Shown here: positions 42,787 to 56,470 of the stretch, piece after piece
Numbering within the stretch: the stretch's first letter is position 1
How the letters are laid out: each line of letters begins with the position of its first letter
Assembly (NCBI GenBank): GCA_903875465.1
Contig: CAIQWB010000102.1
Coordinates: 12,167 to 76,166, forward strand
DNA: 64,000 nucleotides
Direction: 5' to 3'
Origin: an uncultured Verrucomicrobia subdivision 3 bacterium
GTDB lineage: Bacteria; Verrucomicrobiota; Verrucomicrobiia; Limisphaerales; UBA11358
Notes under the pieces: model-generated
Seen by the model: the letters and a program-made list of their open reading frames with translations, nothing else
The model's database searches: none
What the model was told of the DNA's origin: nothing
Made by a program: the position numbers and the translations under genes

Positions 42787-42970
42787 ATCAGGTTTAACCC
42801 GAACTCCGAAATTAAGACGCCCGGTCTGCATCCATCTATTGGGCATAAACGGTTTGGAAAAATCTTACCAGACCGCTGCGGGTATGCGGTGATTTTTCCA
42901 AAGCGTTTCTGCTCCAATATCTTGACGCATCCCGGGCGTTTTAATTTCGGAGTTCGGGTTTAAGCCTGAT
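42787..42970. repeat. 184-bp rod-like nested inverted repeat (MITE-like element or long structured RNA)
   Basis: Outer arms 42787-42824 vs 42931-42970 align over about 38 bp with one mismatch, one indel and one transition. A perfect inner 12-bp pair is tttggaaaaatc (42853-42864) / gatttttccaaa (42891-42902). An innermost pair is accgc/gcggt. Confidence 0.75.
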
Positions 42971-43652
42971 TGGAACTGATCGGCAAATTCTCACAAATGT
43001 GACCGGGCGCGATTGCGGCCAGCCAGGTGGTCAAAAATTGAACTAATTCGGCTTTGTGAGCGCATTCTTGCCGGGGGAGGTTGGGCCGACAAAACGCAAA
43101 GCCGGGGCCGTAGGCCTGGCCATTCAGGACACACGCATTGGTTTGGCATTCCCGCATTTGGCGTTCGGCTTTCGCCAGCGCCTCCGCCGGGGTGCCAGCC
43201 AATTCATATTTCCAGCCGACGAGGAGGCTTTGGGGGAAAAGGGCCCGCATTTTAGTGATCACCTTGGTCGCGGGTTCGAGGTGGATAGTCAGCGCCCCGG
43301 AACGGCTGGCAATTTTGGGCGAATCACAGGCGCGACCTTGCACATCGGTCACGCGACTGACTTTATAATCACATAGTGCGGCGACGTGAAAAGCCGCTCC
43401 GATATTCTCTGTGGCGCTGGCCTGCTCGAGCAAATGCAGCAGGTCGTCATTTGTGTCAAACAAGGTCAAACGACATGGTTCGGCGGGGCCGGGATGGGTG
43501 GCACCGCTGCCTTTGAGGCAAATCACTTCAAAACCCGCACGGGCCAGTTGGTTGCTTAAAGCAACCCCAAGCTCGCCTGTGGAGAAATTGGTCAGCCGCC
43601 GCACTTGATCGATCGGTTCAAAACTGGGTCCGCAGGTGACAATGACTTTCAT
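42960..43652 (-). CDS. Stand-alone CoaB-like protein (phosphopantothenate-cysteine ligase family)
   Basis: MKVIVTCGPSFEPID.VRRLTNFSTGELG resembles the CoaB ITN.SSG..G motif; also has the PKIAS segment. Its last 11 nt, including the stop codon, lie inside the inverted-repeat element. Confidence 0.62.
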   Translation of the reverse strand: MKVIVTCGPSFEPIDQVRRLTNFSTGELGVALSNQLARAGFEVICLKGSGATHPGPAEPCRLTLFDTNDDLLHLLEQASATENIGAAFHVAALCDYKVSRVTDVQGRACDSPKIASRSGALTIHLEPATKVITKMRALFPQSLLVGWKYELAGTPAEALAKAERQMRECQTNACVLNGQAYGPGFAFCRPNLPRQECAHKAELVQFLTTWLAAIAPGHICENLPISSNQA

Positions 43653-43749
43653 AAATGTTTAAAGCCAGCCACGAGTTTGATCTGGCAAAGATTTACTGGT
43701 AGCGAGCCGGGCCGCCCCGTGAACGGTTGGGAATGGTTAACACGGCTTT

Positions 43750-44520
43750 TCATGCGCCCAAAAATTTCTGCCGTGCCGAGGCGGACAAGGCATGCAAATC
43801 GAGGATGGTCAGAAAATCGATCGTCTTAAAATCTTGGTCCAAGGCGGGCGGACCGCAAATTTTTGCCCCCAGACTCAAGTAGGCCCGGAGCAGTTTGGGG
43901 ATTTTAACGGGTTCCGGCGTGAGTTCGTGCAGGGGACACTCACAGGCTGGCAAAGGGCTGACACGCCATGGTGGCGGAGCCAGATGATGGCGGCATAAAT
44001 CGGCATAGGCGGACGCGCCCACCGCCGGTGCTTGCGAGGTGAGTGAGCTGCAACCAAACAGGTAGCGGGCGCCGTGCTGCCGGGCATATTCCGCAATGCC
44101 TTTCCAGAGCAGGCCGAGCACCACCAGGTTGCGATGTTGGGGATGCACACAGGCACGGCCCAATTCAATCAATTCGGCCCGCAACGGTTCGAAGAGCTCC
44201 AAGGCAAATTCCTGTGCACAGTAATAGCCCAGGTGCGCGGCGGCATTCGGGCCGGTTTGCAGGCGGTAGGTACCCACGATGCTGGCAGTGGGCAGATGTT
44301 CAACGACGAGATGCTGGCAAACGGCGTCAAACGGATCTTCATCCCGGCCGGTCGCGTAGGATTGGGCCAGCCCTTCATTGAGTTCCACATTAAAGACCTG
44401 AAACCGCAATCTTTGGGCAGCCCCAACATCCCCGGCATTTTGGGCCAGCCGGATGGCATATTGGGCCGGGGAACTGACCGAGACGCGAAGGATGGCACGA
44501 TCGGTTTTCATGGCGGTCAA
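43750..44520 (-). CDS. OlsB-like GNAT N-acyltransferase (ornithine-lipid / 'hemolysin-like' acyltransferase family)
   Basis: AQRLRFQVFNVELNEGL...YRLQ... pattern typical of the Acetyltransf_5/OlsB family, as I recall it. Confidence 0.6.
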   Translation of the reverse strand: MTAMKTDRAILRVSVSSPAQYAIRLAQNAGDVGAAQRLRFQVFNVELNEGLAQSYATGRDEDPFDAVCQHLVVEHLPTASIVGTYRLQTGPNAAAHLGYYCAQEFALELFEPLRAELIELGRACVHPQHRNLVVLGLLWKGIAEYARQHGARYLFGCSSLTSQAPAVGASAYADLCRHHLAPPPWRVSPLPACECPLHELTPEPVKIPKLLRAYLSLGAKICGPPALDQDFKTIDFLTILDLHALSASARQKFLGA

Positions 44521-44609: not shown

Positions 44610-44915
44610 TCATTTCTGGTTCGAGCGGAGTTGCTGCCGGATGCGCGCGCGGGCTGCCTCGGAAAGCTGCGGGGGCAAGGTTGCCACCAATTTATCCGGA
44701 TGTGCCTGGGCGGCATGGCGAAGAAAGATGATGTGCTGCCCATAGCGGCGGCACCATTGGCAAAGCAGAATGTGACAGCGCAGCCCCAACCACCGGCGAA
44801 ACGATAATTTGTGCTCCAAGGCCGCGGATTGCAGGCGGACGGCCGTTTTGCAATTCGGCGATAGCTCCAGCAGGCCCCGCAGCAGGGATTTTGCGATCTT
44901 CATCAACCAATTCAT
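44610..44915 (-). CDS. Small soluble zinc anti-sigma-like protein (zf-HC2, HxxxCxxC), paralog B
   Basis: 101 aa. SPNC...RCHILLCQWCRRY (H-x3-C-x2-C plus an upstream Cys). Alignable with the adjacent 102-aa paralog. Confidence 0.62.
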   Translation of the reverse strand: MNWLMKIAKSLLRGLLELSPNCKTAVRLQSAALEHKLSFRRWLGLRCHILLCQWCRRYGQHIIFLRHAAQAHPDKLVATLPPQLSEAARARIRQQLRSNQK

Positions 44916-44995
44916 GGTTTTTATTCACCCAACAACTCAAATACTTGCGCCACATTTTGGTCATGGCGAGCAGCAGCAAGTTTTCCGCGTTATGG

Positions 44996-45025
44996 TTGGT
45001 CGGAAAGTCGAAAGAATCCTTACAA
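44996..45025 (-). promoter_or_regulatory. ECF-type promoter candidate (copy B): TTGTAAGGA-N14-CGACCAA
   Basis: Minus-strand reading: AATAAATTGTAAGGA ttctttcgactttc CGACCAA. It overlaps the stop codon of anti-sigma paralog A and points at paralog B. Confidence 0.55.
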
Positions 45026-45328
45026 TTTATTACCCGCCACCATTTTCAGGTTTTTCAGGATGCGCTTTCGGGCGTCAATCGAAAGGCTGGGCAGCGTTTT
45101 AACCTGCTGGTCGACCTGGCGTCCGGCTTGCTGGAGAAACCTTAATTGTCCGGCATAGCGTTCACACCATACGCAGATGAGAAAATGCAAGCGCATGCGC
45201 AAGCGCGTGGACAGGGTCAGAGGTTGATCCAGCGACCGGGAGCTCAGGCGGGACATTTCGGCACAATTGGGGGTGTGGTTCCAGATCCACACAATTGCCT
45301 GCATTTTCAGTTTGGTGAAAGGATTCAT
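45020..45328 (-). CDS. Small soluble zinc anti-sigma-like protein (zf-HC2, HxxxCxxC), paralog A
   Basis: Start at ATG 45328 gives an ATGA overlap with the sigma-gene stop (translational coupling). Contains TPNC...LHFLICVWCERY. Confidence 0.65.
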   Translation of the reverse strand: MNPFTKLKMQAIVWIWNHTPNCAEMSRLSSRSLDQPLTLSTRLRMRLHFLICVWCERYAGQLRFLQQAGRQVDQQVKTLPSLSIDARKRILKNLKMVAGNKL

Positions 45329-46086
45329 TCGGCGATTCCCGGTTTGCCAAACCAATTGGTCTCCAGGCAACGACGCAGCGCCATGCGCGCCCGGTGGAGC
45401 ATTACCCAGAGATTGCTTTCCGAGATGTTTAGCAACGAGCAAATGTCCTTGCTGGCCACGCCGTCCACCTCGCGGAGGTTGAAAACGGCGGCAACATTCT
45501 TGGGGAGATTATTTGAGCAATCCTGGAAGGTTTTCCAAAACATTTCACTGTCCAGACTCGCCCCGGGACTGGCCCAATCCTGGGGGCCAAGCTCGTGAAT
45601 CCAGCCATCCTTGAAGAGGCCATCGGGAACGAACCGCTCGCCTTCCTCGTCCGAGTAGAATTCCAAGTCGGTGAACGGTGTTTCGCGGCTGGACTGGCGG
45701 TAATAGTCGTAAATCTTGTTTTTCAAAATCCCCACCAACCAGCTTTTCTCGGCGGCACGGCCGGCAAAACTCCTGCCCCCCTTGAGCGCGGCCAGGAAGG
45801 TTTCCTGCACCGCATCTTCCGCCCGGGCTTGGTCGCGCAAGCGGAGCAGCGCATATTTGAACAGGTAATCGCCATGCAAATCCACCCACTGTTCCGGATC
45901 GGAAAGCTGGCCGGTCGGCGGCGGATTTTCCGCCGGGAGCGGTGGTTGCGGTTGGTTTGGACGGTCAGTCGGCACGGGCTTAGTATCCGCCTTCAGCCAA
46001 AAAAATGCAATTCCCGAGCTGCGGCCGGGAAACCCGCGGGCGAAATAGTTTGTAAGGATTCGTTTTGGTCCACGACTCACCCCCAT
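45325..46086 (-). CDS. ECF-type RNA polymerase sigma factor; N-terminus uncertain
   Basis: Region 2 (DAVQETFLAALKG..., WLVGILKNKIYDYYR) and region 4 (ICSLLNISESNLWVMLHRARMALRRCLE). The first ~70 codons are Pro-rich and overlap promoter copy C, so an in-frame GTG at 45975 is a plausible real start. Confidence 0.85.
   Translation of the reverse strand: MGVSRGPKRILTNYFARGFPGRSSGIAFFWLKADTKPVPTDRPNQPQPPLPAENPPPTGQLSDPEQWVDLHGDYLFKYALLRLRDQARAEDAVQETFLAALKGGRSFAGRAAEKSWLVGILKNKIYDYYRQSSRETPFTDLEFYSDEEGERFVPDGLFKDGWIHELGPQDWASPGASLDSEMFWKTFQDCSNNLPKNVAAVFNLREVDGVASKDICSLLNISESNLWVMLHRARMALRRCLETNWFGKPGIAE
46050..46079 (+). promoter_or_regulatory. ECF-type promoter candidate (copy C): TTGTAAGGA-N14-CGACTCA
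   Basis: AATAGTTTGTAAGGA ttcgttttggtcca CGACTCA. Points toward the FMN-reductase genes. An ATG lies 6 nt after the CGACTC hexamer. Confidence 0.5.
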
Positions 46087-46308
46087 GCAAGCAAAGTGCC
46101 AAACGCAATTTCCCCCGTCCGGGCCAGCCGATGATCAGGGTGGTGCGGCGGCAAAAAGTTCCGTGGCAGAAGGCGCTTTCAAGGCTGCCAGCCACCCGCA
46201 GATCCTTGAATTTTCCCGGCTGGCCCGACTTCCGGCGGCCACGCCTGGCTGGCGATTTTCATCCTTCAACCCTTAACCCTCACCGCCAAATTATTAAATA
46301 AAACTATT

Positions 46309-46899
46309 ATGATCGTCATTATCAGTGGAACCAATCGAAACGGCAGCAACACCCGCAAAGTGGCTGCCCATGTGGAAAAAGCTTATGGCACGCTCGGTGT
46401 GCCCGCCCAAATCATCGATCTCGCCCAATTGCCGCCGGAGATATATTTACCGTCTGCCTATGATAAAACCCCGGCCGCTTTCCAGCCTTTCATCGATAAG
46501 ATTCTCGCGGCCGATGGATTGGTGGTCGTCACGCCCGAATATAACGGAGGTATTCCCGGCGCCCTGAAGTATTTTATCGACATGCTGCCGTTTCCGGACA
46601 GTTTTGACCAGCGGCCGGTTTGTTTTGTGGGCCTGGCGGCGGGGCTCTGGGGGGCCATGCGGCCGACCGAGCAGTTGCAGCAGATTTTTGCCTACCGCCA
46701 CGGACTGGTCTTTCCGGAGCGCGTTTTTCTGCCCGGGGTCAACAACCTGCTGGACTCTACGGGCCGGTTGCAGCCGGTCATCGAAAGAAATCTGCTGCAG
46801 CAGGCCACGAAATTCGCTCGATTTGTGGAAAAGCTCCGGGAGAAAAAATTTGCCCGGGCAACGGAAGCGCCGGCAAGCGTGAGTTTGCCCACGGCCTAA
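46309..46899 (+). CDS. NAD(P)H-dependent FMN reductase family oxidoreductase (paralog 1)
   Basis: MIVIISGTNRNGSNTRKVA...VVVTPEYNGGIPGALKYFID is an FMN_red fold signature. Confidence 0.82.
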   Translation: MIVIISGTNRNGSNTRKVAAHVEKAYGTLGVPAQIIDLAQLPPEIYLPSAYDKTPAAFQPFIDKILAADGLVVVTPEYNGGIPGALKYFIDMLPFPDSFDQRPVCFVGLAAGLWGAMRPTEQLQQIFAYRHGLVFPERVFLPGVNNLLDSTGRLQPVIERNLLQQATKFARFVEKLREKKFARATEAPASVSLPTA

Positions 46900-46903
46900 A
46901 TCC

Positions 46904-47455
46904 TTGGCACCCATGATTCTGATTATTAGTGGCACCAACCGGCCCGGCAGCAATACCCGCAAGGTGGTAGCCCAGTTGGAAGCCATTTATTCCGCTCTGA
47001 GTGTGCCGGTCCAGGTGCTGGATCTGGCGCAATTGCCCCCGAGCATTATTCTGCCTTCCGTTTATGCGCAGAAGCCCATCGAATTCCAATCATTCAGCGA
47101 CGCGGTGCGCGCGGCGGAGGGACTGGTGGTGGTGACGCCGGAATACAACGGGAGCTTTCCCGGCATATTAAAGTACTTTATGGACCTGCTGCCGTTTCCG
47201 GAAAGTTTTGAGCACCGCCCGGTTTGTTTTGTGGGGCTGGCCGCCGGCATGTGGGGTGCCCTGCGCGCGGTGGAGCAACTGCAGGCCATCTTTGGCTATC
47301 GCAACGCCCATATCTTTCCGGAGCGGGTGTTTATTCCGGGCGTTGCCAAAATGGTGGATGCGGCAGGGCGATTCGCGAATACGGACATGGAACAGCGCTT
47401 GGAAAAACAGGCGGCCGGGTTTGTGGATTTTGTAAAAAAACTCAAGGCTAAATAA
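46904..47455 (+). CDS. NAD(P)H-dependent FMN reductase family oxidoreductase (paralog 2)
   Basis: MILIISGTNRPGSNTRKVV...VVVTPEYNGSFPGILKYFMD. Tandem paralog of the previous gene. Confidence 0.82.
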   Translation: MAPMILIISGTNRPGSNTRKVVAQLEAIYSALSVPVQVLDLAQLPPSIILPSVYAQKPIEFQSFSDAVRAAEGLVVVTPEYNGSFPGILKYFMDLLPFPESFEHRPVCFVGLAAGMWGALRAVEQLQAIFGYRNAHIFPERVFIPGVAKMVDAAGRFANTDMEQRLEKQAAGFVDFVKKLKAK

Positions 47456-47456
47456 A

Positions 47457-47486
47457 TTGTAAGGAATCCTTCACCTCCTCGACCAA
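47457..47486 (+). promoter_or_regulatory. ECF-type promoter candidate (copy A): TTGTAAGGA-N14-CGACCAA
   Basis: AATAAATTGTAAGGA atccttcacctcct CGACCAA. ATG 47495 lies 9 nt after the CGACCA hexamer. Confidence 0.55.
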
Positions 47487-48064
47487 TGCTGGATATGAAC
47501 ATTAAATCAACCAACCGTTTCATCGTCCGCGTGGCTTTATTTTTGGCGATCGCCACCGCCGCCTTTCATTTGCCGGCGGCCGAGCCGCCAAAGGTGGGTG
47601 CCCCCACGCCGGACTTCACGCTTAACACCATGGATGCGAAGTCTGTAACGTTGAGTGCGGAGTACGCCAAACTGCCCGTGGTATTGATCGTTTTGCGCGG
47701 GTGGCCGGGGTACCAGTGTCCATTTTGCACCAGGCAAGTGCACGCGTTTGTGGAACGGGCCAAGGATTTTGCGGGCAAGGCTCGTGTCCTCATGGTTTAT
47801 CCCGGCCCGTCAGAAAATCTGCAAAGCCACGCCGGGGAATTCCTGAAGGGTAAAGGGTGGTCGGAAGATTTCACCTTCGTCACCGACCCCGATTTTACTT
47901 TCACTAAAAGCTTCGGCTTGCGGTGGCAGGCTCCCGGCGAGACGGCTTATCCGTCCACTTTTGTGATTGATACCAAGGGGATTGTGCAGTTCGAAAAAAT
48001 CACCAAAGGCCATGGTGGTCGCACGACTCCGGAAGAAATCCTGGCGGCTCTGGCCAAGCTCTAA
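47486..48064 (+). CDS. Secreted thioredoxin-fold redoxin / peroxiredoxin-like protein (CPFC)
   Basis: WPGYQCPFCTRQ CxxC motif. Signal peptide MNIKSTNRFIVRVALFLAIATAAF if started at ATG 47495, which fits promoter copy A better than 47486. Confidence 0.78.
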   Translation: MLDMNIKSTNRFIVRVALFLAIATAAFHLPAAEPPKVGAPTPDFTLNTMDAKSVTLSAEYAKLPVVLIVLRGWPGYQCPFCTRQVHAFVERAKDFAGKARVLMVYPGPSENLQSHAGEFLKGKGWSEDFTFVTDPDFTFTKSFGLRWQAPGETAYPSTFVIDTKGIVQFEKITKGHGGRTTPEEILAALAKL

Positions 48065-48315
48065 TGGCCACGGTCTTGCTATTGCTCGGCGGATATCTCC
48101 TCTTGGGGATGTTGTTTGCCGTTCCCTTTGCTTTCATAGGGGCGCAAAGAATTGACCCCCACGCGGCGGGGGCAGGCTGGGGTTTTCGCCTCCTCCTCAT
48201 TCCGGGTGCGGTGGCATTTTGGCCCTGGCTGTTGCATCGGTGGCGCACGGGCGTGCATGAGCCTCCGGTTGAGCGTACGGCTCACCGTGAGGCTGCGCGG
48301 AAAGGCCGGCCATGA
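48064..48315 (+). CDS. Small two-TM hypothetical membrane protein
   Basis: TAATG overlap with the upstream gene and ATGA overlap with the downstream gene. Hydrophobic helices LLLLGGYLLLGMLFAVPFAFI and FRLLLIPGAVAFWPWLL. Confidence 0.55.
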   Translation: MATVLLLLGGYLLLGMLFAVPFAFIGAQRIDPHAAGAGWGFRLLLIPGAVAFWPWLLHRWRTGVHEPPVERTAHREAARKGRP

Positions 48316-48803
48316 TCCAACCATTGCGCCAGCTCCATCGTCGCGCGACTCTGATACTGGGCATTTTTGTGCCCGCGGCGTTTGCCACCGGCCTCATTTT
48401 GCGCACGCCCGCGCCCACTATGCCCGGGTTTTCTCCGGGACTTGGCCTGGCACCTCAAGCCATGACGAGCACGGGTTGGTGCCGCACGAATCTGTTTCCG
48501 AAAGGTGCGATAACCGTGCGACTGTTCCGGGAGAACCCGCCACTTTCGCGGGCGGTCGTCAGTTTTTCAGCGGATCCTGATTTTCGGCAACCCGATTTGC
48601 TGGTTTATTGGCTGCCGGGAAGCCCCATGGTGGCGGACGCACTGCCGGATAGTGCCACTTTATTGGGCGAGTTTGCGGCGCCGGCATTGCCCCTCCCAAC
48701 TGAAGCCTCCGCCCGCCCGGGGGTGTTTGTCCTATACAGTCTGGCGGATAACAAGATAGTGAATATCTCCCGGCCGGCCCTTATCGGCGAGCTCAACCCC
48801 TGA
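48312..48803 (+). CDS. Hypothetical membrane-anchored protein
   Basis: N-terminal TM ATLILGIFVPAAFATGLIL. Translationally coupled within the operon. Confidence 0.55.
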   Translation: MIQPLRQLHRRATLILGIFVPAAFATGLILRTPAPTMPGFSPGLGLAPQAMTSTGWCRTNLFPKGAITVRLFRENPPLSRAVVSFSADPDFRQPDLLVYWLPGSPMVADALPDSATLLGEFAAPALPLPTEASARPGVFVLYSLADNKIVNISRPALIGELNP

Positions 48804-48817
48804 CCATTATTTAATTC

Positions 48818-49855
48818 ATGTCCCTCCAATACCAGGCGGTCCAATGGAACCGGCAAAAGCGCCTGTACGATGCCGTGCTGGTGGGTGGGGTGGCGTTATA
48901 CCTCTTGGGTTTTGGCGCGGTGACGGAATTCCTATTCCCCAACATCACCGAGGAAATTTTGCTGATGCGGGCGTTTGGCTCGGCCGCCTTTATTTTGCTT
49001 CACATTATTCTGTGCATCGGTCCGCTGGGTCGCCTAAACGCGGGCTTTTTGCCCCTGCTGTACAATCGGCGTCATGCGGGGGTGACGTTATTTCTGCTGG
49101 CATTGATCCATGCGGTGATGGTGGTTACGACATACCATGCCGGCGGGGACACGAATCCGATTGCCAGTATCTGGGTGTCCAGTCCGTTGACTCATTCAGT
49201 GGCGGGGGTGCCTTTCCAGGCGTTCGGCTTTTTGGCATTGGTGATTTTGTTTTTGATGGCGGCAACCAGCCATGATTTCTGGCTGGCCAATTTGAGCGCG
49301 CCGGTTTGGAAATCGCTGCACATGCTGGTTTATGCCGCCTATGCGCTGCTGGTCTTGCATGTCACCTTTGGGGTGCTGCAAGCGGAAACCAGCCTGGTTT
49401 ATGCAGTGACGATGGCGGCTGGCCTGGTCACGGTGCTGGGGTTGCACGGCTTGGCCGCGAGCAAGGAAGCGCGGTTGGATCGAAAAATAAACGCCCCGGA
49501 TACTGACGGTTGGGTGGAGGCCGGTGCAGTGGCGGATATTCCCGATAACCGCGCGCGCATTGTGTGTGTGGCTGGCGAGCGGGTGGCTATTTTTAAGTAT
49601 GCGGGGAAAATCTCCGCCGTTTCAAATGTTTGTCAGCACCAGAATGGGCCGCTGGGGGAGGGTAAAATAGTGGCGGGCTGTATCACCTGTCCCTGGCATG
49701 GCTATCAGTATTTGCCGGAGACGGGGGCTTCGCCGCCACCCTTTGTGGAGCGCGTTCCCACCTTTCAAGTGCGCTTGAAAAACGGCCGGGTATGGGTAAA
49801 TCCCCAGCCAAATCCTGCCGGGACCAGGGCGGAACCGGCGGTGATTGAGCTATGA
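48818..49855 (+). CDS. Fusion of a ferric-reductase-like (YedZ/MsrQ-type, His-rich) transmembrane domain with a C-terminal Rieske [2Fe-2S] domain
   Basis: Six TM segments with conserved His (LLHIILC, LIHAV, SHDFW, LHMLVY, LHVTFG). Rieske motifs CQHQNGPL ... CPWHGYQY. Confidence 0.78.
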   Translation: MSLQYQAVQWNRQKRLYDAVLVGGVALYLLGFGAVTEFLFPNITEEILLMRAFGSAAFILLHIILCIGPLGRLNAGFLPLLYNRRHAGVTLFLLALIHAVMVVTTYHAGGDTNPIASIWVSSPLTHSVAGVPFQAFGFLALVILFLMAATSHDFWLANLSAPVWKSLHMLVYAAYALLVLHVTFGVLQAETSLVYAVTMAAGLVTVLGLHGLAASKEARLDRKINAPDTDGWVEAGAVADIPDNRARIVCVAGERVAIFKYAGKISAVSNVCQHQNGPLGEGKIVAGCITCPWHGYQYLPETGASPPPFVERVPTFQVRLKNGRVWVNPQPNPAGTRAEPAVIEL

Positions 49856-50619
49856 GTGATGATTTTTACATTGGCTGGGAAGCCCGGCCAGGAGCGGGCC
49901 CGGCCCGGCGGTTGCGGACCCTCGTGGTGCTGTTGCTGGTGGTGGGGCTTGGGCTGGCCGTGGCACTGGCCACCCAGCAACACACCATTGGGACCAGTGT
50001 GTTTGAATGGGGCAACCTGAAGCCATTTAGCGGGCGCTTGGAACTCCAACCCTATCCGCATCTCTTGGTGCCTCGACCGGGTGCCACCAACTCCCAGCCG
50101 GGGTTTTCCACTTATTATCTCGTCGCCCCCTTCAAACATGGACTTGACCGGGAGAAGTTTGGCGCCCTGGAAGGACAGATGGTGACCTTGCAAGGCACCT
50201 TGATTTATCGTGGCGATCAAACCATGGTTGAGGCCGTGCCGGATTCCATCCACGCGGTGGCGAGTCCAGCTTCCCTGCCGACGGGCGCGGCGACGGTGCG
50301 TCTGGGGCGGCAAACCCTCGTGGGTGAGATTGTGGACAGCAAATGTTATTTTGGGGTGATGAATCCCGGCCAACTGCTGCCGCACCGGGCCTGCGCGATC
50401 AATTGCATCAGCGGAGGTATTCCGCCGGTCTTGCTGGTGCGCCCAAAAAATGGTCCGGCCATTTATTTGTTGCTGGTGTCCGCCTTGGGAAAACCCGTGA
50501 ACCAGCAGGTGCTGGACTTCGTGGCCGAACCGGTGGAAATTACTGGTGAGGTTGAATGGCAGGACGGCCTGCTCATTTTGCGGGCTGATCCGCAGACTTA
50601 CCGGCGGGTGGGGCGATGA
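49852..50619 (+). CDS. Hypothetical membrane-anchored protein with a C-x15-C-x3-C motif
   Basis: ATGA-coupled to the Rieske gene. TM LRTLVVLLLVVGLGLAVALA, and Cys motif SKCYFGVMNPGQLLPHRACAINCISGGIPP. Confidence 0.65.
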   Translation: MSDDFYIGWEARPGAGPARRLRTLVVLLLVVGLGLAVALATQQHTIGTSVFEWGNLKPFSGRLELQPYPHLLVPRPGATNSQPGFSTYYLVAPFKHGLDREKFGALEGQMVTLQGTLIYRGDQTMVEAVPDSIHAVASPASLPTGAATVRLGRQTLVGEIVDSKCYFGVMNPGQLLPHRACAINCISGGIPPVLLVRPKNGPAIYLLLVSALGKPVNQQVLDFVAEPVEITGEVEWQDGLLILRADPQTYRRVGR

Positions 50620-50659
50620 GGAGATTTTTGCCCGGGAGAACTATATCACCAATCAACCC

Positions 50660-51583
50660 GTGAACCGACAGCCCTTGAACTTTTTGCGTGGTTACCGATC
50701 CTCCCCATTTTCCGGGTGGGTGGCGGGCGCCGTAGCGTTGGGCCTGCTCATCGCGCTGCCCGCGTTTGCCGGCATGTTCGCTCAATTTGACAATCCTGAA
50801 CGGCTCGGGGCGATGGTGCATGTCACCACGACCAATGGCTTCACCCTTCGCTGGGCGGAAAAACGTTCCGCTACCAACACCGGGCTGGACTTGGTCTTTA
50901 TCCACGGATCACCGGGCGGGGCCGGGGTTTGGGCGTCGCAATTTAAGGCCCCTTATCCGGGTGCTAGCCTCTATGCTTACGACCGCCCAGGCTTTGGTCT
51001 TTCCCTGCCGGTGGGGAACCAGCCGCATTTGCGAGGGCAGGTGGACGCTTTGATGGTGTTGCTGGCCCGTGCCACCACCAACCGAGTTTTACTGGTGGGG
51101 CATAGTTATGGTTCCCCCATTGCCCTGCTGGCCGCCTTGGAGCATCCGGACCAAATCGGGGGCGTGTTGCTGATCGGGGGGGATGTGGATCCGGCGCAGG
51201 AAAACCCGTGGTTCGTGCAATATTTTTTTGGCTGGCGCGCCACCTCCTGGCTGTTGCCACGCGCGTTGCGCCAATGCAACCGTGAGATGCTCTCCGCGCG
51301 CGCGGACCTGGTCCAAATGCAAACCCAATTTGCCCGGCTGGCCGTGCCGGTGGTGATGTTGCATGGCGACCATGATCCGCTGGTGCCCGTGGAAAATGTG
51401 GCCTGGTTCGAACAACAGCTCGCCGCTCTGGGCAAAGCGAACCTCTTCGCCAAAATCATCCTGCCCGGGGTGAATCATTTTATCCCGTGGGAACATCCTG
51501 GTGAAGTCGAGCGGGGCATCCGTCTACTCATCAATATGGCTGCTGGTCCAGGTGGAGCCTCCGATACCCAGATCCGGCCTTAA
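50660..51583 (+). CDS. Secreted alpha/beta hydrolase
   Basis: GTG start at 50660 gives a signal-like N-terminus (NRQPLNFLRGY...GLLIALPAFAG) and removes the overlap with the upstream gene. HGSPGG and GHSYGS nucleophile elbow. Confidence 0.75.
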   Translation: MNRQPLNFLRGYRSSPFSGWVAGAVALGLLIALPAFAGMFAQFDNPERLGAMVHVTTTNGFTLRWAEKRSATNTGLDLVFIHGSPGGAGVWASQFKAPYPGASLYAYDRPGFGLSLPVGNQPHLRGQVDALMVLLARATTNRVLLVGHSYGSPIALLAALEHPDQIGGVLLIGGDVDPAQENPWFVQYFFGWRATSWLLPRALRQCNREMLSARADLVQMQTQFARLAVPVVMLHGDHDPLVPVENVAWFEQQLAALGKANLFAKIILPGVNHFIPWEHPGEVERGIRLLINMAAGPGGASDTQIRP

Positions 51584-51606
51584 AAATTTTTAATTTTCGA
51601 ATTCGA

Positions 51607-51636
51607 TTGTAAGTTTTGCCGCGCGTGGCCGACGAA
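51607..51636 (+). promoter_or_regulatory. ECF-type promoter candidate (copy E, weaker): TTGTAAGTT-N14-CGACGAA
   Basis: ttcgaTTGTAAGTT ttgccgcgcgtggc CGACGAA, 35 nt upstream of the DUF2934 ATG. Confidence 0.45.
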
Positions 51637-51670
51637 TCATTGTAATCCACTAATAATACAATTGCCAAAA

Positions 51671-51871
51671 ATGAAAAAAACCAGGAAAAAAAATCCGCCC
51701 GCTGAAATCAAGCTTCCACCGCCGGTAGTGTTTGACTATGAACTGGAAATCAATCGCCGGGCCTATGAATTATGGGAAGCGGCGGGCGGCGGGCATGGTG
51801 ACGACCTGCGTCACTGGCTGGTCGCTGAGCGTGAATTTCAGGCGCGCCGCCAGTCCGACAAGGCGCAGTAA
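51671..51871 (+). CDS. DUF2934-type small protein
   Basis: INRRAYELWEAAGGGHGDDLRHWLVAEREF matches the DUF2934 pattern (R.AYELWE..G...G.D...W..AE). Confidence 0.7.
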   Translation: MKKTRKKNPPAEIKLPPPVVFDYELEINRRAYELWEAAGGGHGDDLRHWLVAEREFQARRQSDKAQ

Positions 51872-51895
51872 GCCAGTCGTCACTTGCGGCTAATC

Positions 51896-51927
51896 CAACG
51901 CCGGGCGCCGTCCGGCGTTGTTTGTTT
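51896..51927 (+). terminator. Rho-independent terminator
   Basis: Stem caacgccgg / ccggcgttg, loop gcgccgt, then tttgttt. Confidence 0.75.
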
Positions 51928-52128
51928 CCAGCAGAGGTTTTCAACCGCAAACCATTTCCCTGCGGCATAACCACCCAATTACCTCGGACGACGACGACCG
52001 GTTTCCACCCGAAGGGGCAGATTTCCCGCTTGCGTTTGGGCAACCACCAGCAAATCCCCATGGGAAACCGGAATGGAGACCTTTCTGCGGGCCAAACCAA
52101 CCCAATAAGTCAAAAATATTGAAATAAG

Positions 52129-52158
52129 GTGTAAGGAATGATGTTTAATTAAGACCAA
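52129..52158 (+). promoter_or_regulatory. ECF-type promoter candidate (copy D): GTGTAAGGA-N14-AGACCAA
   Basis: AATAAGGTGTAAGGA atgatgtttaatta AGACCAA. ATG 52166 lies 8 nt after the AGACCA hexamer. Confidence 0.5.
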
Positions 52159-52165
52159 CCATTGT

Positions 52166-52618
52166 ATGAAAAAACTATCATTGATTCTGCTTGTGCTGGG
52201 CCTGGCGCTGCCAGTTTTTGCCCAAACCAAAACCCTCCTCAACCTGGACCGTGACGGTCTGGCCATCCAAGGCTATGACCCGGTGGCCTTTTTTACCGAC
52301 CAAAAGCCGGTCAAAGGCGACGCGAAATATGTGTTCAAGCATGAAGGGGCCGTCTACTTTTTTGCATCCAAAGAGCACCGGGACCTTTTCAAGACGAACC
52401 CGGCCAAGTATGAACCGGTGTTTGGCGGGTATTGTGCTTATGGCGTTTCGCGCAACAAGCTGGTGGAAATTGACGTGGATGCCTTCCAAATTGTGGATGA
52501 CAAATTGCTGCTGCAATACAGCAAATCCATCCGTGAGGATTTCAATAAAGATGCCAAAGCCAATCTGGCCAAAGCGGATGCCAACTGGCCGGCGCTGGTT
52601 GCCAAGAAAGGCAAATAA
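52166..52618 (+). CDS. Secreted YHS-domain protein (GGYCAYG type)
   Basis: Signal peptide MKKLSLILLVLGLALPVFA. GYDPVAFF...YFFASKEHRDLF..NP.KY.P.FGGYCAYG. Confidence 0.72.
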   Translation: MKKLSLILLVLGLALPVFAQTKTLLNLDRDGLAIQGYDPVAFFTDQKPVKGDAKYVFKHEGAVYFFASKEHRDLFKTNPAKYEPVFGGYCAYGVSRNKLVEIDVDAFQIVDDKLLLQYSKSIREDFNKDAKANLAKADANWPALVAKKGK

Positions 52619-52657: not shown

Positions 52658-53062
52658 ATGGAAAACTTTTCCAAGACCCAGATGATCGTCAGCTGGATAT
52701 GCCGGCTCACGGCGGCGGTGATTTTATTGCAAACCTTGTTTTTTAAATTTACCGGGGCGCCGGAGTCCATCTACATTTTCACCAAGGTTGGCATGGAGCC
52801 TTGGGGGCGGTACGGCTCAGGAGTGGTGGAGTTGGTGGCGGCCATGTTGTTGATGGTGCGCTGTAAAGCCTGGCTGGGGGCTTTGCTCGCGCTGGGCACG
52901 ATGTGCGGGGCGATTTTTTTTCACCTGACGATTCTCGGTATCAGTGTCCAAAACGATGGCGGATTGCTGTTTGCCCTGGCGATCGTGACTTCGGTATGCT
53001 GTGGCATCACGCTCTATCTGCACCGGCGGCAGATTCCGTACGTTTCACGATTAATCAACTAA
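52658..53062 (+). CDS. DoxX-family membrane protein
   Basis: 134 aa, four TM. The R.TAAVILLQTLFFKFTG start is typical of DoxX. Confidence 0.65.
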   Translation: MENFSKTQMIVSWICRLTAAVILLQTLFFKFTGAPESIYIFTKVGMEPWGRYGSGVVELVAAMLLMVRCKAWLGALLALGTMCGAIFFHLTILGISVQNDGGLLFALAIVTSVCCGITLYLHRRQIPYVSRLIN

Positions 53063-53069
53063 CAAAGCA

Positions 53070-53618
53070 ATGAATCCAAATGATGCTGGCGAAAGCCGGG
53101 AATTAATCAATGCAGTCATGGAAACGCTGCGCCAGGGCGAATTTCTGCTGCAGGAAATGGATAATGCTGCTTATACCTGCAAGCTGGCGGTGGCCTTTGA
53201 CGCTTCCATCGGCGGGCATATCCGGCATTGCCTGGATCATTTTCGCACCCTCCTGCAGGCGGCCCCGGCGGGTGATTTAAATTATGATCAACGCCAGCGC
53301 GGCACCGCGGTGGAAACAGATCGACTGGCGGCGCTCCAGGAAACGCGGGATTTAATCGCAAGTTATGCCAAGCTCGATCCACTCTGCACGGCGCGGTCCT
53401 TGCTGGTGACCTGCAAAACCAGCTATTCAGCCGGTGGCTCGCAAGTTTCCCCCTCCACGGTGGGCCGTGAGATCATGTATGCCGTCGCGCACGCGGTCCA
53501 TCACTACGCGTTGATCGGGGTCATGGGTGGCGTCATGGGCTTGCGGTTGCCCGCGGGCTTCGGCATCGCCCCATCCACCCTCAAACACCAGGCCGAAGCG
53601 GCGCGAATCGCCGCCTGA
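53070..53618 (+). CDS. DinB-superfamily (DinB_2-like) metal-dependent protein
   Basis: Spaced His residues in helices (GGHIRHCLDHF ... AVAHAVHHYALIG), as in the DinB four-helix-bundle His triad. Confidence 0.55.
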   Translation: MNPNDAGESRELINAVMETLRQGEFLLQEMDNAAYTCKLAVAFDASIGGHIRHCLDHFRTLLQAAPAGDLNYDQRQRGTAVETDRLAALQETRDLIASYAKLDPLCTARSLLVTCKTSYSAGGSQVSPSTVGREIMYAVAHAVHHYALIGVMGGVMGLRLPAGFGIAPSTLKHQAEAARIAA

Positions 53619-53623
53619 CGGTC

Positions 53624-55276
53624 ATGACCGGAGCCCTGCCATTGGCCCCCGAAACCCTTGCAGGATGGCTGCCGTTTTGGCAGGCCGCCGGATTTTTTTG
53701 TGCGACCTTTGTGCTGGAGGATGCGGCGGCAGTCGGTGCCGGTTTGCTGCTGGCCAGTGGCTCCATTGCCTGGCCTGCCGCTTTTTCCGCCTGTTTTCTG
53801 GGCATTTGGCTGGGGGATGTGGGGCTTTACGCGCTCGCCCGCTTTGCGGGGCGAACGTGGTTTGAAAATTCGCGGTTGAAAAAGTATTCCGGCAAAGTTG
53901 CCCGCAGTGAGAATTGGTTTCGCGAGCGCGGGACGATGATATTAATCGTTAGCCGGGCGGTGCCCGGGGCAAGGCTGCCCACCTATCTGGCCGCAGGTTT
54001 TTTGCGGGTGCCCGCCGTTGCTTTTTTGTTGATCACTGCGGCTGCCGCGCTGGTATGGACGCTGGCCGTGTTATTCCTGACGCAAATGTTCGGCACGCGT
54101 CTGTTGCATTGGTTCAGCCATTACAAATCGGTCAGCTTTTGGGTGTTGGGCAGCGCCGTTGGATTGCTGGTTGGTTTGCGAATATTGCGCCGGGTGCTGT
54201 CCGATTTGGACCGCCGCCGGTTGGGCACCCGCTTTGTCCGCTGGACGCGCTGGGAATTTTGGCCCATGTGGCTGTTCTATCCTCCCGTGGCTCTTTATTA
54301 CCTCTGGCTCGCCCTCAAATATCGTGGGGCCATGCTGCCGACCGCAGCCAATCCCGGAATCTTCTCAGGGGGCATGGTGGGGGAATCCAAAATGAAAACT
54401 TTGCAAGATCTCATGCACTCAAGCGGCGAGTTCACGGCGGAAGCGGAGCTGCTCGCCGGCGATTCCCCCAAAGGCCGGCTGATTTCATTGCGTGCGATTT
54501 GTGAGCGCCGAAATATTTCCTATCCTTTCATCCTCAAACCGGATCTGGGACAACGCGGTGCCGGCATCAAACTGATTCGGAATGAAGCCCAGGCCGTGGC
54601 GTATTTGCAGGAAACCCAAGCGCAGTTAATGGTGCAGCGGTTTGCCGCCGGCCCGCACGAAGTGGGGATTTTTTATTATCGTTTCCCCGGGGAAACTCAC
54701 GGCCGTATTTTTGCCATCACCGAAAAAGTTTTTCCCTTCGTCACCGGCGATGGCAAAGCCACGGTGGCGGAACTTATCTGGCGGGATGACCGTGCCCGCT
54801 TTATGGCGGAAACCTATTTGCAACGCGCGGGTTCACGGCAACACCATGTGCTGGCCGCGGGGGAAACGCAACCGCTCGGCCTGGCGGGCAACCACGCCCA
54901 AGGCTGTATCTTTCGTGACGGTATGAGACTGAACACGCCCGCACTGGAACAGCGCATTGATGAAATCTCCAAAAAGGTGAGCGGCTTCTACATTGGTCGT
55001 TATGACATCCGGTTTGGGAGTGAGGCAGACTTGCGCCAGGGCACCCATTTTCAAATTATCGAATTAAATGGCGCGGCGGCTGAAGCCACCAGCATTTACG
55101 ATGCGCGCAACACTTTGTGGTCCGCGTATCGCACCTTGTTTCGGCAGTGGGATTTGGTGTTTGCCATTGGGGCGGCCAACCGGCGGCGCGGCTGTGCGCC
55201 CATGACCATGCGGGATGGCTGGCGCGCCTGGCGCCATTATGCCGCGCTCGCCGCCACGTATCCGGCCGCCGACTAG
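53624..55276 (+). CDS. Fusion of a DedA/VTT-type membrane domain with a C-terminal ATP-grasp ligase domain
   Basis: N-terminus FVLEDAAAVGAGLL...WLGDVGLYALARFAGR (DedA-like) plus several TM. C-terminus YPFILKPDLGQRGAGIKLI...MVQRF...EVGIFYYR...IELNGAAAE (ATP-grasp-like). Confidence 0.62.
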   Translation: MTGALPLAPETLAGWLPFWQAAGFFCATFVLEDAAAVGAGLLLASGSIAWPAAFSACFLGIWLGDVGLYALARFAGRTWFENSRLKKYSGKVARSENWFRERGTMILIVSRAVPGARLPTYLAAGFLRVPAVAFLLITAAAALVWTLAVLFLTQMFGTRLLHWFSHYKSVSFWVLGSAVGLLVGLRILRRVLSDLDRRRLGTRFVRWTRWEFWPMWLFYPPVALYYLWLALKYRGAMLPTAANPGIFSGGMVGESKMKTLQDLMHSSGEFTAEAELLAGDSPKGRLISLRAICERRNISYPFILKPDLGQRGAGIKLIRNEAQAVAYLQETQAQLMVQRFAAGPHEVGIFYYRFPGETHGRIFAITEKVFPFVTGDGKATVAELIWRDDRARFMAETYLQRAGSRQHHVLAAGETQPLGLAGNHAQGCIFRDGMRLNTPALEQRIDEISKKVSGFYIGRYDIRFGSEADLRQGTHFQIIELNGAAAEATSIYDARNTLWSAYRTLFRQWDLVFAIGAANRRRGCAPMTMRDGWRAWRHYAALAATYPAAD

Positions 55277-55290
55277 ACCACAACCAGACC

Positions 55291-56022
55291 ATGTGCACCG
55301 TTACTTTTTCCCCGCGGCGGCGCGGCTACGCGCTGGCCATGAATCGCGATGAAAAACTTTCCCGTGCAACTGGTTTGCCACCCATTCGGCATTTCATTCA
55401 AGGGCGAAATGTGCTCGCGCCCTCCGAGCCGGGCGGCGGAACGTGGATCTCGGTGAATGACTCGGGAGCCGCTTTTGCCTTGATCAATTGGTACGCCATC
55501 GCCGCCCAGGTGGAAATTGGCCCAGTCAGCCGGGGGAAGGTGGTTTTTGCCGTGAGTGCAGTCGCCACCGGTGAAGCGGCAGCCAGTGCTTTGGCACAAA
55601 TGCCGCTCCACTCGGTGAATCCCTTTCGTCTTATCGGTGCTTTTCCGGCGGCCCAAGAAATCCGGGAGTGGCGCTGGGATTTAAAAAAGTTGGTGCAGGC
55701 GGCGCATCCGTGGCGCTTGCAGCAATGGATTTCATCCGGTTTCGATGAACCCACGGCCCAACTGATGCGGGGCCAAGTTTTTCAAGCCGCGAGCGCACAA
55801 AAATCTGTTGGCTCACTGGCGTGGTTGCGCCGCCTGCACCGCTCCCACACCCCGATTGCCGGGCCATTTTCGACCTGTATGCACCGCGTGGATGCCGCCA
55901 CGGTAAGCTATTCCGAAGTGCGCGTGAGCAGCGATGCTGCCAAGATGAATTATTTCGCCGGTGCGCCCTGTCAATGTGCGGGTGGTGTGCCTGATAAAGC
56001 CATGGTAATGTTGTCAAAATAA
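55291..56022 (+). CDS. NRDE-family (TANGO2-like) protein with N-terminal Cys (Ntn-hydrolase-like)
   Basis: MCTVTFSPRRRGYALAMNRDEK carries Cys2 and a literal NRDE motif. Start at ATG 55291, not the long ORF start at 55117. Confidence 0.8.
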   Translation: MCTVTFSPRRRGYALAMNRDEKLSRATGLPPIRHFIQGRNVLAPSEPGGGTWISVNDSGAAFALINWYAIAAQVEIGPVSRGKVVFAVSAVATGEAAASALAQMPLHSVNPFRLIGAFPAAQEIREWRWDLKKLVQAAHPWRLQQWISSGFDEPTAQLMRGQVFQAASAQKSVGSLAWLRRLHRSHTPIAGPFSTCMHRVDAATVSYSEVRVSSDAAKMNYFAGAPCQCAGGVPDKAMVMLSK

Positions 56023-56359: not shown

Positions 56360-56385
56360 AAAAAAGCCCGGTCTTGCGACCGGGC
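56360..56385 (-). terminator. Rho-independent terminator downstream of tRNA-fMet
   Basis: Minus-strand reading: gcccggtc gcaa gaccgggc followed by T6. Confidence 0.8.
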
Positions 56386-56393
56386 GTTGAAAT

Positions 56394-56470
<77 letters not shown>

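Follow-up and report, generated by a model that had tools for sequence, protein, structure and literature searches.

Five copies of a predicted promoter motif around a TIGR02943-family sigma factor gene in an uncultured Verrucomicrobial bacterium

Which factor reads a two-box motif that occurs five times, always at the same spacing, among the redox genes of a bacterium known only from its assembled DNA? The question is raised by a 64,000-nucleotide stretch (hereafter, the window) of contig CAIQWB010000102.1, assembly GCA_903875465.1, from an uncultured Verrucomicrobia subdivision 3 bacterium. The motif copies in this window lie around a gene for an extracytoplasmic function (ECF) sigma factor and two genes for anti-sigma factors with a zinc motif, referred to here as anti-sigma A and anti-sigma B. 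An earlier reading made from the sequence alone (the sequence-only reading) had proposed that the copies tie about 13 kb of redox genes into one ECF regulon under the adjacent sigma factor and its zinc anti-sigma, and the proposal is borne out by the co-occurrence of the motif with orthologues of this sigma factor, by conservation footprints and by a published promoter consensus. It is very likely, in our judgement, that the adjacent sigma factor (45325-45975) reads all five sites as promoters and that these sites define one regulon of five units and about 19 genes. The system is an expanded Verrucomicrobial version of the sigma-E/MseR oxidative-stress system, the counterpart of RpoE2/HrsE in Haemophilus, and its promoter class is already known. 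To our knowledge, sigma factors of this family have been studied only in Neisseria and Haemophilus, where the regulons comprise a handful of genes.

Five copies of one two-box motif and their conservation

A pattern search for TGTAAG-N16-MGAC returned five matches in the 64-kb window, against an expectation of 0.06 and a maximum of one match in 100 shuffled sequences. These are the same five copies that had been listed by eye, at the same places and with exactly the sequences quoted for them. The hexamer TGTAAG by itself occurs 15 times in the window, and one third of these copies have the second box at the fixed distance. A weight matrix was built solely from orthologous loci of other genomes, with the window left out of training. 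It gives the five sites scores of 23-34 bits and detects no further match of at least 7 bits on either strand of the window, so that the additional copies once thought possible there are not found. The five predicted promoters, each with its exact pattern match in brackets, are as follows; FMN in the second and third lines stands for flavin mononucleotide.

44996-45031, minus strand: promoter B (44999-45024), AATAAATTGTAAGGA-N14-CGACCAA, 31.5 bits; upstream of the anti-sigma B, OlsB-like and CoaB-like genes
46044-46079, plus strand: promoter C (46051-46076), 33.8 bits; divergent from the sigma gene and upstream of two FMN reductase genes
47451-47486, plus strand: promoter A (47458-47483), 34.1 bits; begins at the TAA of FMN reductase 2, before a six-gene redoxin-to-hydrolase unit
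51601-51636, plus strand: promoter E (51608-51633), 24.5 bits; -35 box TGTAAGTT, the weakest of the five; before the DUF2934 gene alone
52123-52158, plus strand: promoter D (52130-52155), 23.2 bits; -10 variant AGAC; before the YHS-DoxX-DinB-like-VTT-TANGO2 unit

All five sites lie outside coding sequence or touch a stop codon only, and each is co-oriented with the next gene, just as the sequence-only reading had described. The -35 box of promoter B overlaps the TAA stop codon of anti-sigma A, and site C becomes fully intergenic once the sigma gene is taken to begin at GTG 45975, its most likely start codon, and not at ATG 46086. A longer signature, AAATA-N3-TGTAAGGA(A/T)T ... CGAC(C/T)(A/C)A, is common to four of the five sites; promoter A reads GTAAGGAAT, 12 nt, CGACCAAT.

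The motif was then sought in 23 genome-derived loci that carry orthologues of the sigma factor (40-80% identity) and come from Verrucomicrobiota, Acidobacteriota, Kapaibacteria, Zixibacteria, Planctomycetota, and Pseudomonadota. The loci contain 46 exact matches in 336 kb, whereas 56 control loci with unrelated ECF sigma factors, retrieved by the same scan, gave no exact match in 840 kb. Replication on metagenome contigs absent from the matrix training showed 97 matrix matches (78 exact) in 289 kb of orthologue loci, compared to one match, not an exact one, in 150 kb of controls; the combined controls thus hold no exact match in 990 kb around unrelated ECF sigma factors. Positions that had not been selected for are conserved as well. 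Among the 46 sites, TGTAAG is followed by G in 42 and then by (A/T)TT, the two A residues after CGAC-N are present in 35 and 41, respectively, and an A-rich stretch lies just upstream of the motif. In nine regions upstream of anti-sigma B, TGTAAGG and CGAC.AA are the sole invariant parts, with the spacer and flanks diverged, and the regions upstream of the YHS and redoxin genes show the same footprint pattern. Conservation of the motif upstream of orthologous operons in relatives, a comparison that the sequence-only reading had suggested, is therefore seen in all three kinds of region.

Each of the five sites also has counterparts at equivalent positions in other genomes. Promoter B has positional orthologues in eight other genomes, and a divergent site at the same position as promoter C is present in 22 of 30 close orthologous loci. 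An orthologous site precedes the redoxin gene (promoter A) in locus L005, a weaker one precedes the DUF2934 gene (promoter E) in the same locus, and orthologous sites precede the YHS gene (promoter D) in L006 and L008. Counterparts of units A, B, D, and E likewise follow the motif in L005, L006, and L008. The Proteobacterial homologues at 34-35% identity (L026 and L028) have no site, and the matrix therefore falls short of the whole family.

Targets in relatives were tallied from the open reading frames (ORFs) that follow the sites in orthologous loci, with at most three per site; the ORF caller gave some wrong calls for these genes, and only the family counts were used. The commonest target families are the sigma factor itself (9), DUF1223 (5), redoxin/AhpC-TSA (5), and MsrA and MsrB (4), followed by aquaporin-type MIP, OlsB-like GNAT, and thioredoxin-like proteins (3 each) and by MbnB/HvfB and VTT proteins (2 each). 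Target genes of these kinds would suit a response that repairs oxidative or hypochlorite damage. The msrAB gene is found behind the motif in L003, L005, L006, and L022. Different genes are present in the metagenomic locus L003, whose sigma factor is 75% identical to that of the window, namely msrAB, DUF1223, and an HvfA/DUF692/DUF2063/DoxX cluster, with MbnB/HvfC also behind the motif; of its three TGTAAGG-N15-CGAC copies, one precedes msrAB, one precedes the sigma gene, and one follows the anti-sigma gene.

The adjacent sigma factor and other possible readers of the motif

The following features make up the regulatory part of the locus.

45325-45975, minus strand: ECF sigma factor gene, TIGR02943 family, 216 amino acids (aa) from GTG 45975
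45982-46010, minus strand: housekeeping-type promoter of the sigma gene, TTGCAT, 17 nt, GATACT, 6 nt, GTG
45020-45328, minus strand: anti-sigma A (NF052368), 102 aa, soluble, C22-x25-H48-x3-C52-x2-C55
44610-44915, minus strand: anti-sigma B, paralogue of 101 aa that keeps the Cys/His spacing of anti-sigma A, behind promoter B

The sigma factor matches the TIGR02943 family with 189.4 bits (cut-off 162.2) and is 44% identical to the gonococcal Ecf protein over 177 aa (E 9e-43), which itself scores 284 bits against the same family. Its score against TIGR02947 (SigH_actino) is 43.5 bits, the cut-off being 251.55. The closest genomes belong to Verrucomicrobiota (Verrucomicrobiia, subdivision 3, Limisphaerales), and only distant relatives, including weak matches to SigH chains, were found in the PDB. 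Group ECF18 (RpoT-like), a possible lead, was not used for the assignment. The family has been called ECF group 13 (PMC7907618) and ECF13 has been merged into ECF293 (PMC7826278), so that an ECF group number, ECF293 being the one expected, is reached only through this indirect chain of literature.

The promoter of Neisseria sigma-E consists of a -35 element GTMAGBWTT, a spacer of 12-13 nt, and a -10 element CGTCTAAH (Hopman et al., PMC2893595), and the mapped start of msrAB is a conserved A six nt past the -10 motif (PMC2893595). The window sites, written in the same way, are GTAAGGAWT, 12 nt, and CGACCAA, which matches the Neisseria boxes and spacing. The gonococcal operon promoter, TGTCAG-N16-CGTCTAAC, has a spacing identical to that of the window sites, and the order of the gonococcal locus (DoxX/HvfX, HvfA, DUF692, DUF2063, sigma factor, small anti-sigma) is that of the Neisseria sigma-E operon. 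As a separate observation, two complete Neisseria gonorrhoeae chromosomes (2.17 Mb), including L085 (NZ_CP119142.1), are filed as plasmids, which looks like a labelling error.

The likeness to the Neisseria system (sigma-E, also Ecf; NMB2144 / NGO1944) and MseR extends beyond the GTAAGG-type -35 box, the 12 nt after the 9-mer, and the CG(T/A)C-N-AA box. In both, a TIGR02943 sigma factor is directly followed by a small soluble anti-sigma with H-x3-C-x2-C, and a DoxX-family gene belongs to the regulon; msrAB and HvfA/DUF692/DUF2063 are targets in orthologues of the window sigma factor. In the window itself, msrAB, DUF692, and DUF2063 are absent and DoxX alone of these targets stands behind a site. 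The two systems differ in size and wiring. The Neisseria regulon is tiny, comprising its own six-gene operon and msrAB, with an autoregulated sigma factor and a single anti-sigma of about 59 aa, whereas the window has five promoters, about 19 genes, two anti-sigma factors of about 100 aa each, of which one falls within the regulon, and a sigma gene that lies behind a housekeeping-type promoter with no motif copy. The closest relative of Neisseria sigma-E is RpoE2 of Haemophilus influenzae (PMC7907618). RpoE2, with its small zinc anti-sigma HrsE, controls msrAB and a neighbouring gene, is induced by hypochlorite, and activates its own promoter only very weakly (PMC7907618). This near-lack of self-activation resembles the sigma factor of the window, which is not autoregulated, a likeness drawn from the description of the Haemophilus system; unlike the window, Haemophilus has a small RpoE2 regulon and one anti-sigma of 67 aa.

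The sequence-only reading had likened the locus to SigR-RsrA of Streptomyces and SigH-RshA of Mycobacterium. The comparison holds for the soluble zinc anti-sigma with H-x3-C-x2-C and for a presumed thiol or oxidative-stress regulon, but not for the sigma family: by its SigH_actino score the window sigma factor belongs to another ECF group than these ECF12 systems, and its closest counterparts are Neisseria sigma-E/MseR and Haemophilus RpoE2/HrsE. SigR, unlike the window sigma factor, is autoregulated. The promoter consensus had been thought different, and it does differ from the SigR promoter, GGAAT-N18-GTT, but it was already published for the TIGR02943 family. A look-alike promoter, (T/C)GTAAC-N17-CGAA, is known from the ECF16 group (PMC8315932), which includes SigF-NrsF of Caulobacter and BcrS-AbcS of Brucella. 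These systems respond to hypochlorite or metal stress and have methionine-sulfoxide-repair targets. The five window sites are distinguished from the ECF16 promoter by G at position 6 of the first box, a 16-nt spacer, and CGAC or AGAC as the second box. The ECF16 anti-sigma is a multi-pass membrane protein (NrsF/DUF1109), whereas those of the window are zinc-motif proteins of 101-102 aa.

Several points weigh against reading the five sites as promoters of the adjacent sigma factor. The -10 box is CGAC in the window but CGTC in Neisseria, one systematic change. Site D has AGAC and site E a poorer -35 box, and both lie about 10 bits below the other three. Upstream of the sigma gene, neither the weight matrix nor relaxed patterns detected a motif copy that reaches 7 bits; a sigma factor gene without such a copy is unusual for ECF systems, and the usual argument from autoregulation is gone. 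Anti-sigma B scores 46.2 bits against NF052368, just under the cut-off of 50. Moreover, peroxide induction was not observed in meningococci (Hopman et al., PMC2893595).

The missing autoregulation link gives some room to the idea that the motif, although a genuine ECF-type promoter, serves a different sigma factor, perhaps a paralogue whose gene lies in another part of the genome, the more so as the view is limited to 64 kb of that genome. Against this, the motif tracks orthologues of the window sigma factor across phyla and is absent around unrelated ECF sigma factors, the sigma gene itself carries the motif in L003, L008, and L011 and in 9 of 30 close relatives, and the Neisseria homologue has been shown experimentally to use such a promoter. 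On account of the co-occurrence data and the autoregulated relatives, we consider a different reader quite unlikely.

The two boxes could also be the operator of a DNA-binding regulator, either a repressor or an activator, since two-box sites with fixed spacing are typical of some transcription factors too. The boxes, however, differ from each other and have neither dyad nor direct-repeat symmetry, and they are always oriented toward the gene. An ATG is located 8-13 nt past the second box in 21 of 61 sites (9% expected; p = 8e-8), and 16 of these 21 ATGs open an ORF of at least 90 codons; such a distance fits a -10 element and leaves a separate downstream promoter without room. In addition, both the geometry and the sequence are the same as in a promoter whose start has been mapped, and the sigma/anti-sigma pair are the only regulator genes that co-occur with the motif. 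Lack of box symmetry, strict orientation, and start codons lying too close make an operator very unlikely. That the copies are chance matches or functionless remnants of a repeated or mobile sequence, for which nothing more than the A+T-rich look of the flanks speaks, is hardly credible and already refuted, because five copies are far above the number expected, the spacers share their length but not their sequence, and orthologous positions are conserved despite diverged flanks.

Start sites, leaders, and the two anti-sigma factors

Recognition of the five sites by the adjacent sigma factor has consequences for where the transcripts would begin. Starts are predicted at about 44989-44991, 46085, 47492-47493, 51643-51644, and 52164-52166. 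Because the Neisseria start site sits 9 nt past CGTC, leaders of 0-3 nt would be expected for unit A, whose ATG is at 47495, and for unit D, whose ATG is at 52166, and several transcripts of the regulon appear to be leaderless, judging from the positions of their start codons. Promoter C is separated from the first FMN reductase gene by about 230 nt (46085-46308, plus strand). An ORF of 63 codons (46085-46276) opens right at the predicted start within this leader and is absent at the same place in relatives; the leader has no Rfam match, and its fold is not significant (z = -1.67). The relatives' equivalent of promoter C directly precedes msrAB, an FMN reductase gene, or a membrane protein gene.

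The sigma gene had been delimited as 45325-46086. Its identity as an ECF sigma factor gene stands, but the 253-aa ORF from ATG 46086 is probably too long, an artefact of gene calling, and GTG 45975 is the more likely start. The N-terminal extensions of the sigma homologues show no sequence relationship to one another, and the equivalent of GTG 45975 is where several of these proteins begin. The layout of the housekeeping-type promoter that precedes this codon is kept in L005, L006, L009, and L022 and in 13 of 30 close orthologues, and only one of the close orthologues has both this promoter and the motif upstream of the sigma gene. The sigma mRNA is predicted to be leaderless, with the housekeeping-type promoter 6 nt before the GTG. 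An attenuator (hairpin and T-run) considered at 46011-46031 on the minus strand was rejected, as the T-run belongs to the promoter conserved in the four relatives, where it forms the -35 box and spacer.

Anti-sigma A scores 51.8 bits against NF052368, compared to the cut-off of 50 and to 76.9 bits for the gonococcal anti-sigma, and its ATG overlaps the stop codon of the sigma gene (ATGA). Anti-sigma B is 36% identical to it (E 2e-16), and the H-x3-C-x2-C zinc motif is present in the translations of both 45020-45328 and 44610-44915. No relative of the anti-sigma was found in the PDB. A motif copy right after the sigma gene, or after the sigma/anti-sigma A pair, is the most conserved feature of the locus and occurs in 27 of 31 close orthologues. 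In the window, L005, L006, and L012, this copy precedes anti-sigma B; in L008, L009, and L022, it precedes the sole anti-sigma gene. Since the copy stands before an anti-sigma gene, negative feedback through an induced anti-sigma is predicted. Of separate note, L012 belongs to a bin titled Klebsiella pneumoniae and has a Verrucomicrobial-type sigma locus (67% identity), which looks like another labelling error.

In eight distant orthologues, with sigma factors 42-48% identical to that of the window, the motif lies inside the sigma gene. The six genome-derived copies (L018 10469, L019 1288, L021 2197, L023 10490, L024 2007, and L025 1153, all on the plus strand) score 25-37 bits, and the other two are in L134 and L136. 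The intragenic copies cover codons of the region-4 helix (e.g., I-C-K-E-L-Q-I-T-A-T-N) and are aimed at the anti-sigma gene that follows; upstream of the sigma gene, the motif is absent from all six genome-derived loci. Such a copy could serve, from within the sigma gene, as a promoter for the anti-sigma only, or it could merely result from the codons used there. In the Acidobacterial loci L016 and L017 (Pyrinomonadaceae), the motif is found before a subtilase (Peptidase_S8) gene that is followed by a small anti-sigma-like protein, and extra anti-sigma-like copies seem to recur outside Verrucomicrobiota too. A sigma-dependent promoter for an anti-sigma may, on the tentative view given below, recur in the family by three routes: gene duplication (the window, L005, L006, and L012), a promoter located in the gap that separates the sigma gene from the anti-sigma gene (L008, L009, and L022), and a promoter-like motif in the region-4 coding sequence (the eight distant orthologues).

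Genes of the five units and proposed mechanism

Gene families were assigned with Pfam and NCBIfam. The remaining features of the five units are listed below.

42960-43652, minus strand: stand-alone CoaB-like ligase (C-terminal domain of DFP)
43750-44511, minus strand: OlsB-like N-acyltransferase (GNAT, Acetyltransf_5)
46309-46899, plus strand: NAD(P)H-dependent FMN reductase 1
46913-47455, plus strand: NAD(P)H-dependent FMN reductase 2
47486-48064, plus strand: secreted redoxin, AhpC/TSA type; likely start on the promoter-A transcript, ATG 47495
48064-48315, plus strand: 83-aa protein without family match, kept after the redoxin gene in L005
48312-48803, plus strand: 163-aa protein without family match, conserved in L005
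48818-49855, plus strand: membrane protein, ferric-reductase (MsrQ-like) domain fused to a Rieske [2Fe-2S] domain
49852-50619, plus strand: 255-aa protein without family match
50660-51583, plus strand: alpha/beta hydrolase
51671-51871, plus strand: DUF2934 protein, 66 aa
51896-51930, plus strand: intrinsic-terminator-like hairpin of 11 pairs (8 G-C), then TTTGTTT, between units E and D
52166-52618, plus strand: secreted member of the YHS-domain (seleno)protein family (NF041384, 145 bits, cut-off 70)
52658-53062, plus strand: DoxX membrane protein
53070-53618, plus strand: DinB-like protein (weak match)
53624-55276, plus strand: VTT/DedA-domain membrane protein, 550 aa, with a weak ATP-grasp-like middle region
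55291-56022, plus strand: TANGO2-family protein (Pfam)

The gene content given by the sequence-only reading agrees with these assignments except at two places. The gene called ATP-grasp encodes the VTT/DedA protein, in which only the middle region is weakly ATP-grasp-like, and the gene called NRDE matches the TANGO2 family of Pfam, which we take to be NRDE under another name. Just past unit D, a tRNA gene (56397-56470, minus strand) and a strong terminator hairpin (56366-56385, minus strand) are found, at which the regulon cluster ends; a CHASE2 Ser/Thr kinase gene (56755-58767) comes after the tRNA gene.

Two groups of genes deserve separate description. The CoaB-like ligase and the OlsB-like acyltransferase (42960-44511, minus strand) apparently share a transcript with the inducible anti-sigma, and an OlsB-like acyltransferase gene also comes after anti-sigma B in L005, L008, and L010, sometimes with its own motif copy. 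A role of the pair in making a thiol-containing or lipid-linked protectant is conceivable. The second group (46309-49855, plus strand) belongs to consecutive units, predicted to be sigma-dependent, that encode two cytoplasmic FMN reductases, the MsrQ-like/Rieske membrane protein, and the secreted redoxin. Electrons may be passed from cytoplasmic NAD(P)H through the FMN reductases and the Rieske/MsrQ-like membrane protein to the secreted redoxin, and thus to the periplasm, for repair; the Fre-MsrQ-MsrP route of E. coli resembles this proposal.

The following mechanism is proposed. In unstressed cells, the sigma factor, expressed from its conserved housekeeping-type promoter, would be bound by the zinc anti-sigma A that is co-translated with it. 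Oxidation of the Cys/His zinc site of anti-sigma A, for instance by hypochlorite, peroxide, or thiol oxidants, would set the sigma factor free; an oxidant as the inducing signal is suggested by the work on Neisseria and Haemophilus and by the zinc motif. Region 4 of the sigma factor would then bind the -35 box TGTAAGG(A/T)(A/T)T and region 2 the -10 box CGAC-N-AA, 16 nt past TGTAAG, and transcription would begin about 9 nt past CGAC, so that the five units (about 19 genes) would be turned on together. Anti-sigma B, induced with them, could re-capture the sigma factor and thereby end the response.

A more far-reaching view of this wiring is offered only tentatively. The Verrucomicrobial circuit might combine a constitutive sigma factor and anti-sigma A on a leaderless mRNA with a second zinc anti-sigma as the sole regulator within the regulon, and such a negative-feedback-only loop, with two anti-sigma factors and an oxidant signal, might produce a self-limiting pulse. 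The anti-sigma promoter would then be a recurring element of the family, and the regulon would perhaps encode a trans-membrane electron route.

In this uncultured Verrucomicrobial lineage, the promoter signature that serves Neisseria sigma-E delineates a compact regulon with some 19 genes, and the tested weight matrix is usable to predict the regulon in any genome. Several little-understood genes behind the sites in the window and in its relatives provide candidates for oxidative-stress and hypochlorite defence, namely the YHS (seleno)protein, DoxX, DinB-like, VTT, TANGO2, DUF2934, and DUF1223 proteins and the Rieske/MsrQ-like fusion. As for the wiring, it represents a modest variation on ECF circuits, with a sigma factor that is not autoregulated, a second anti-sigma predicted to be inducible, and transcripts predicted to be leaderless.

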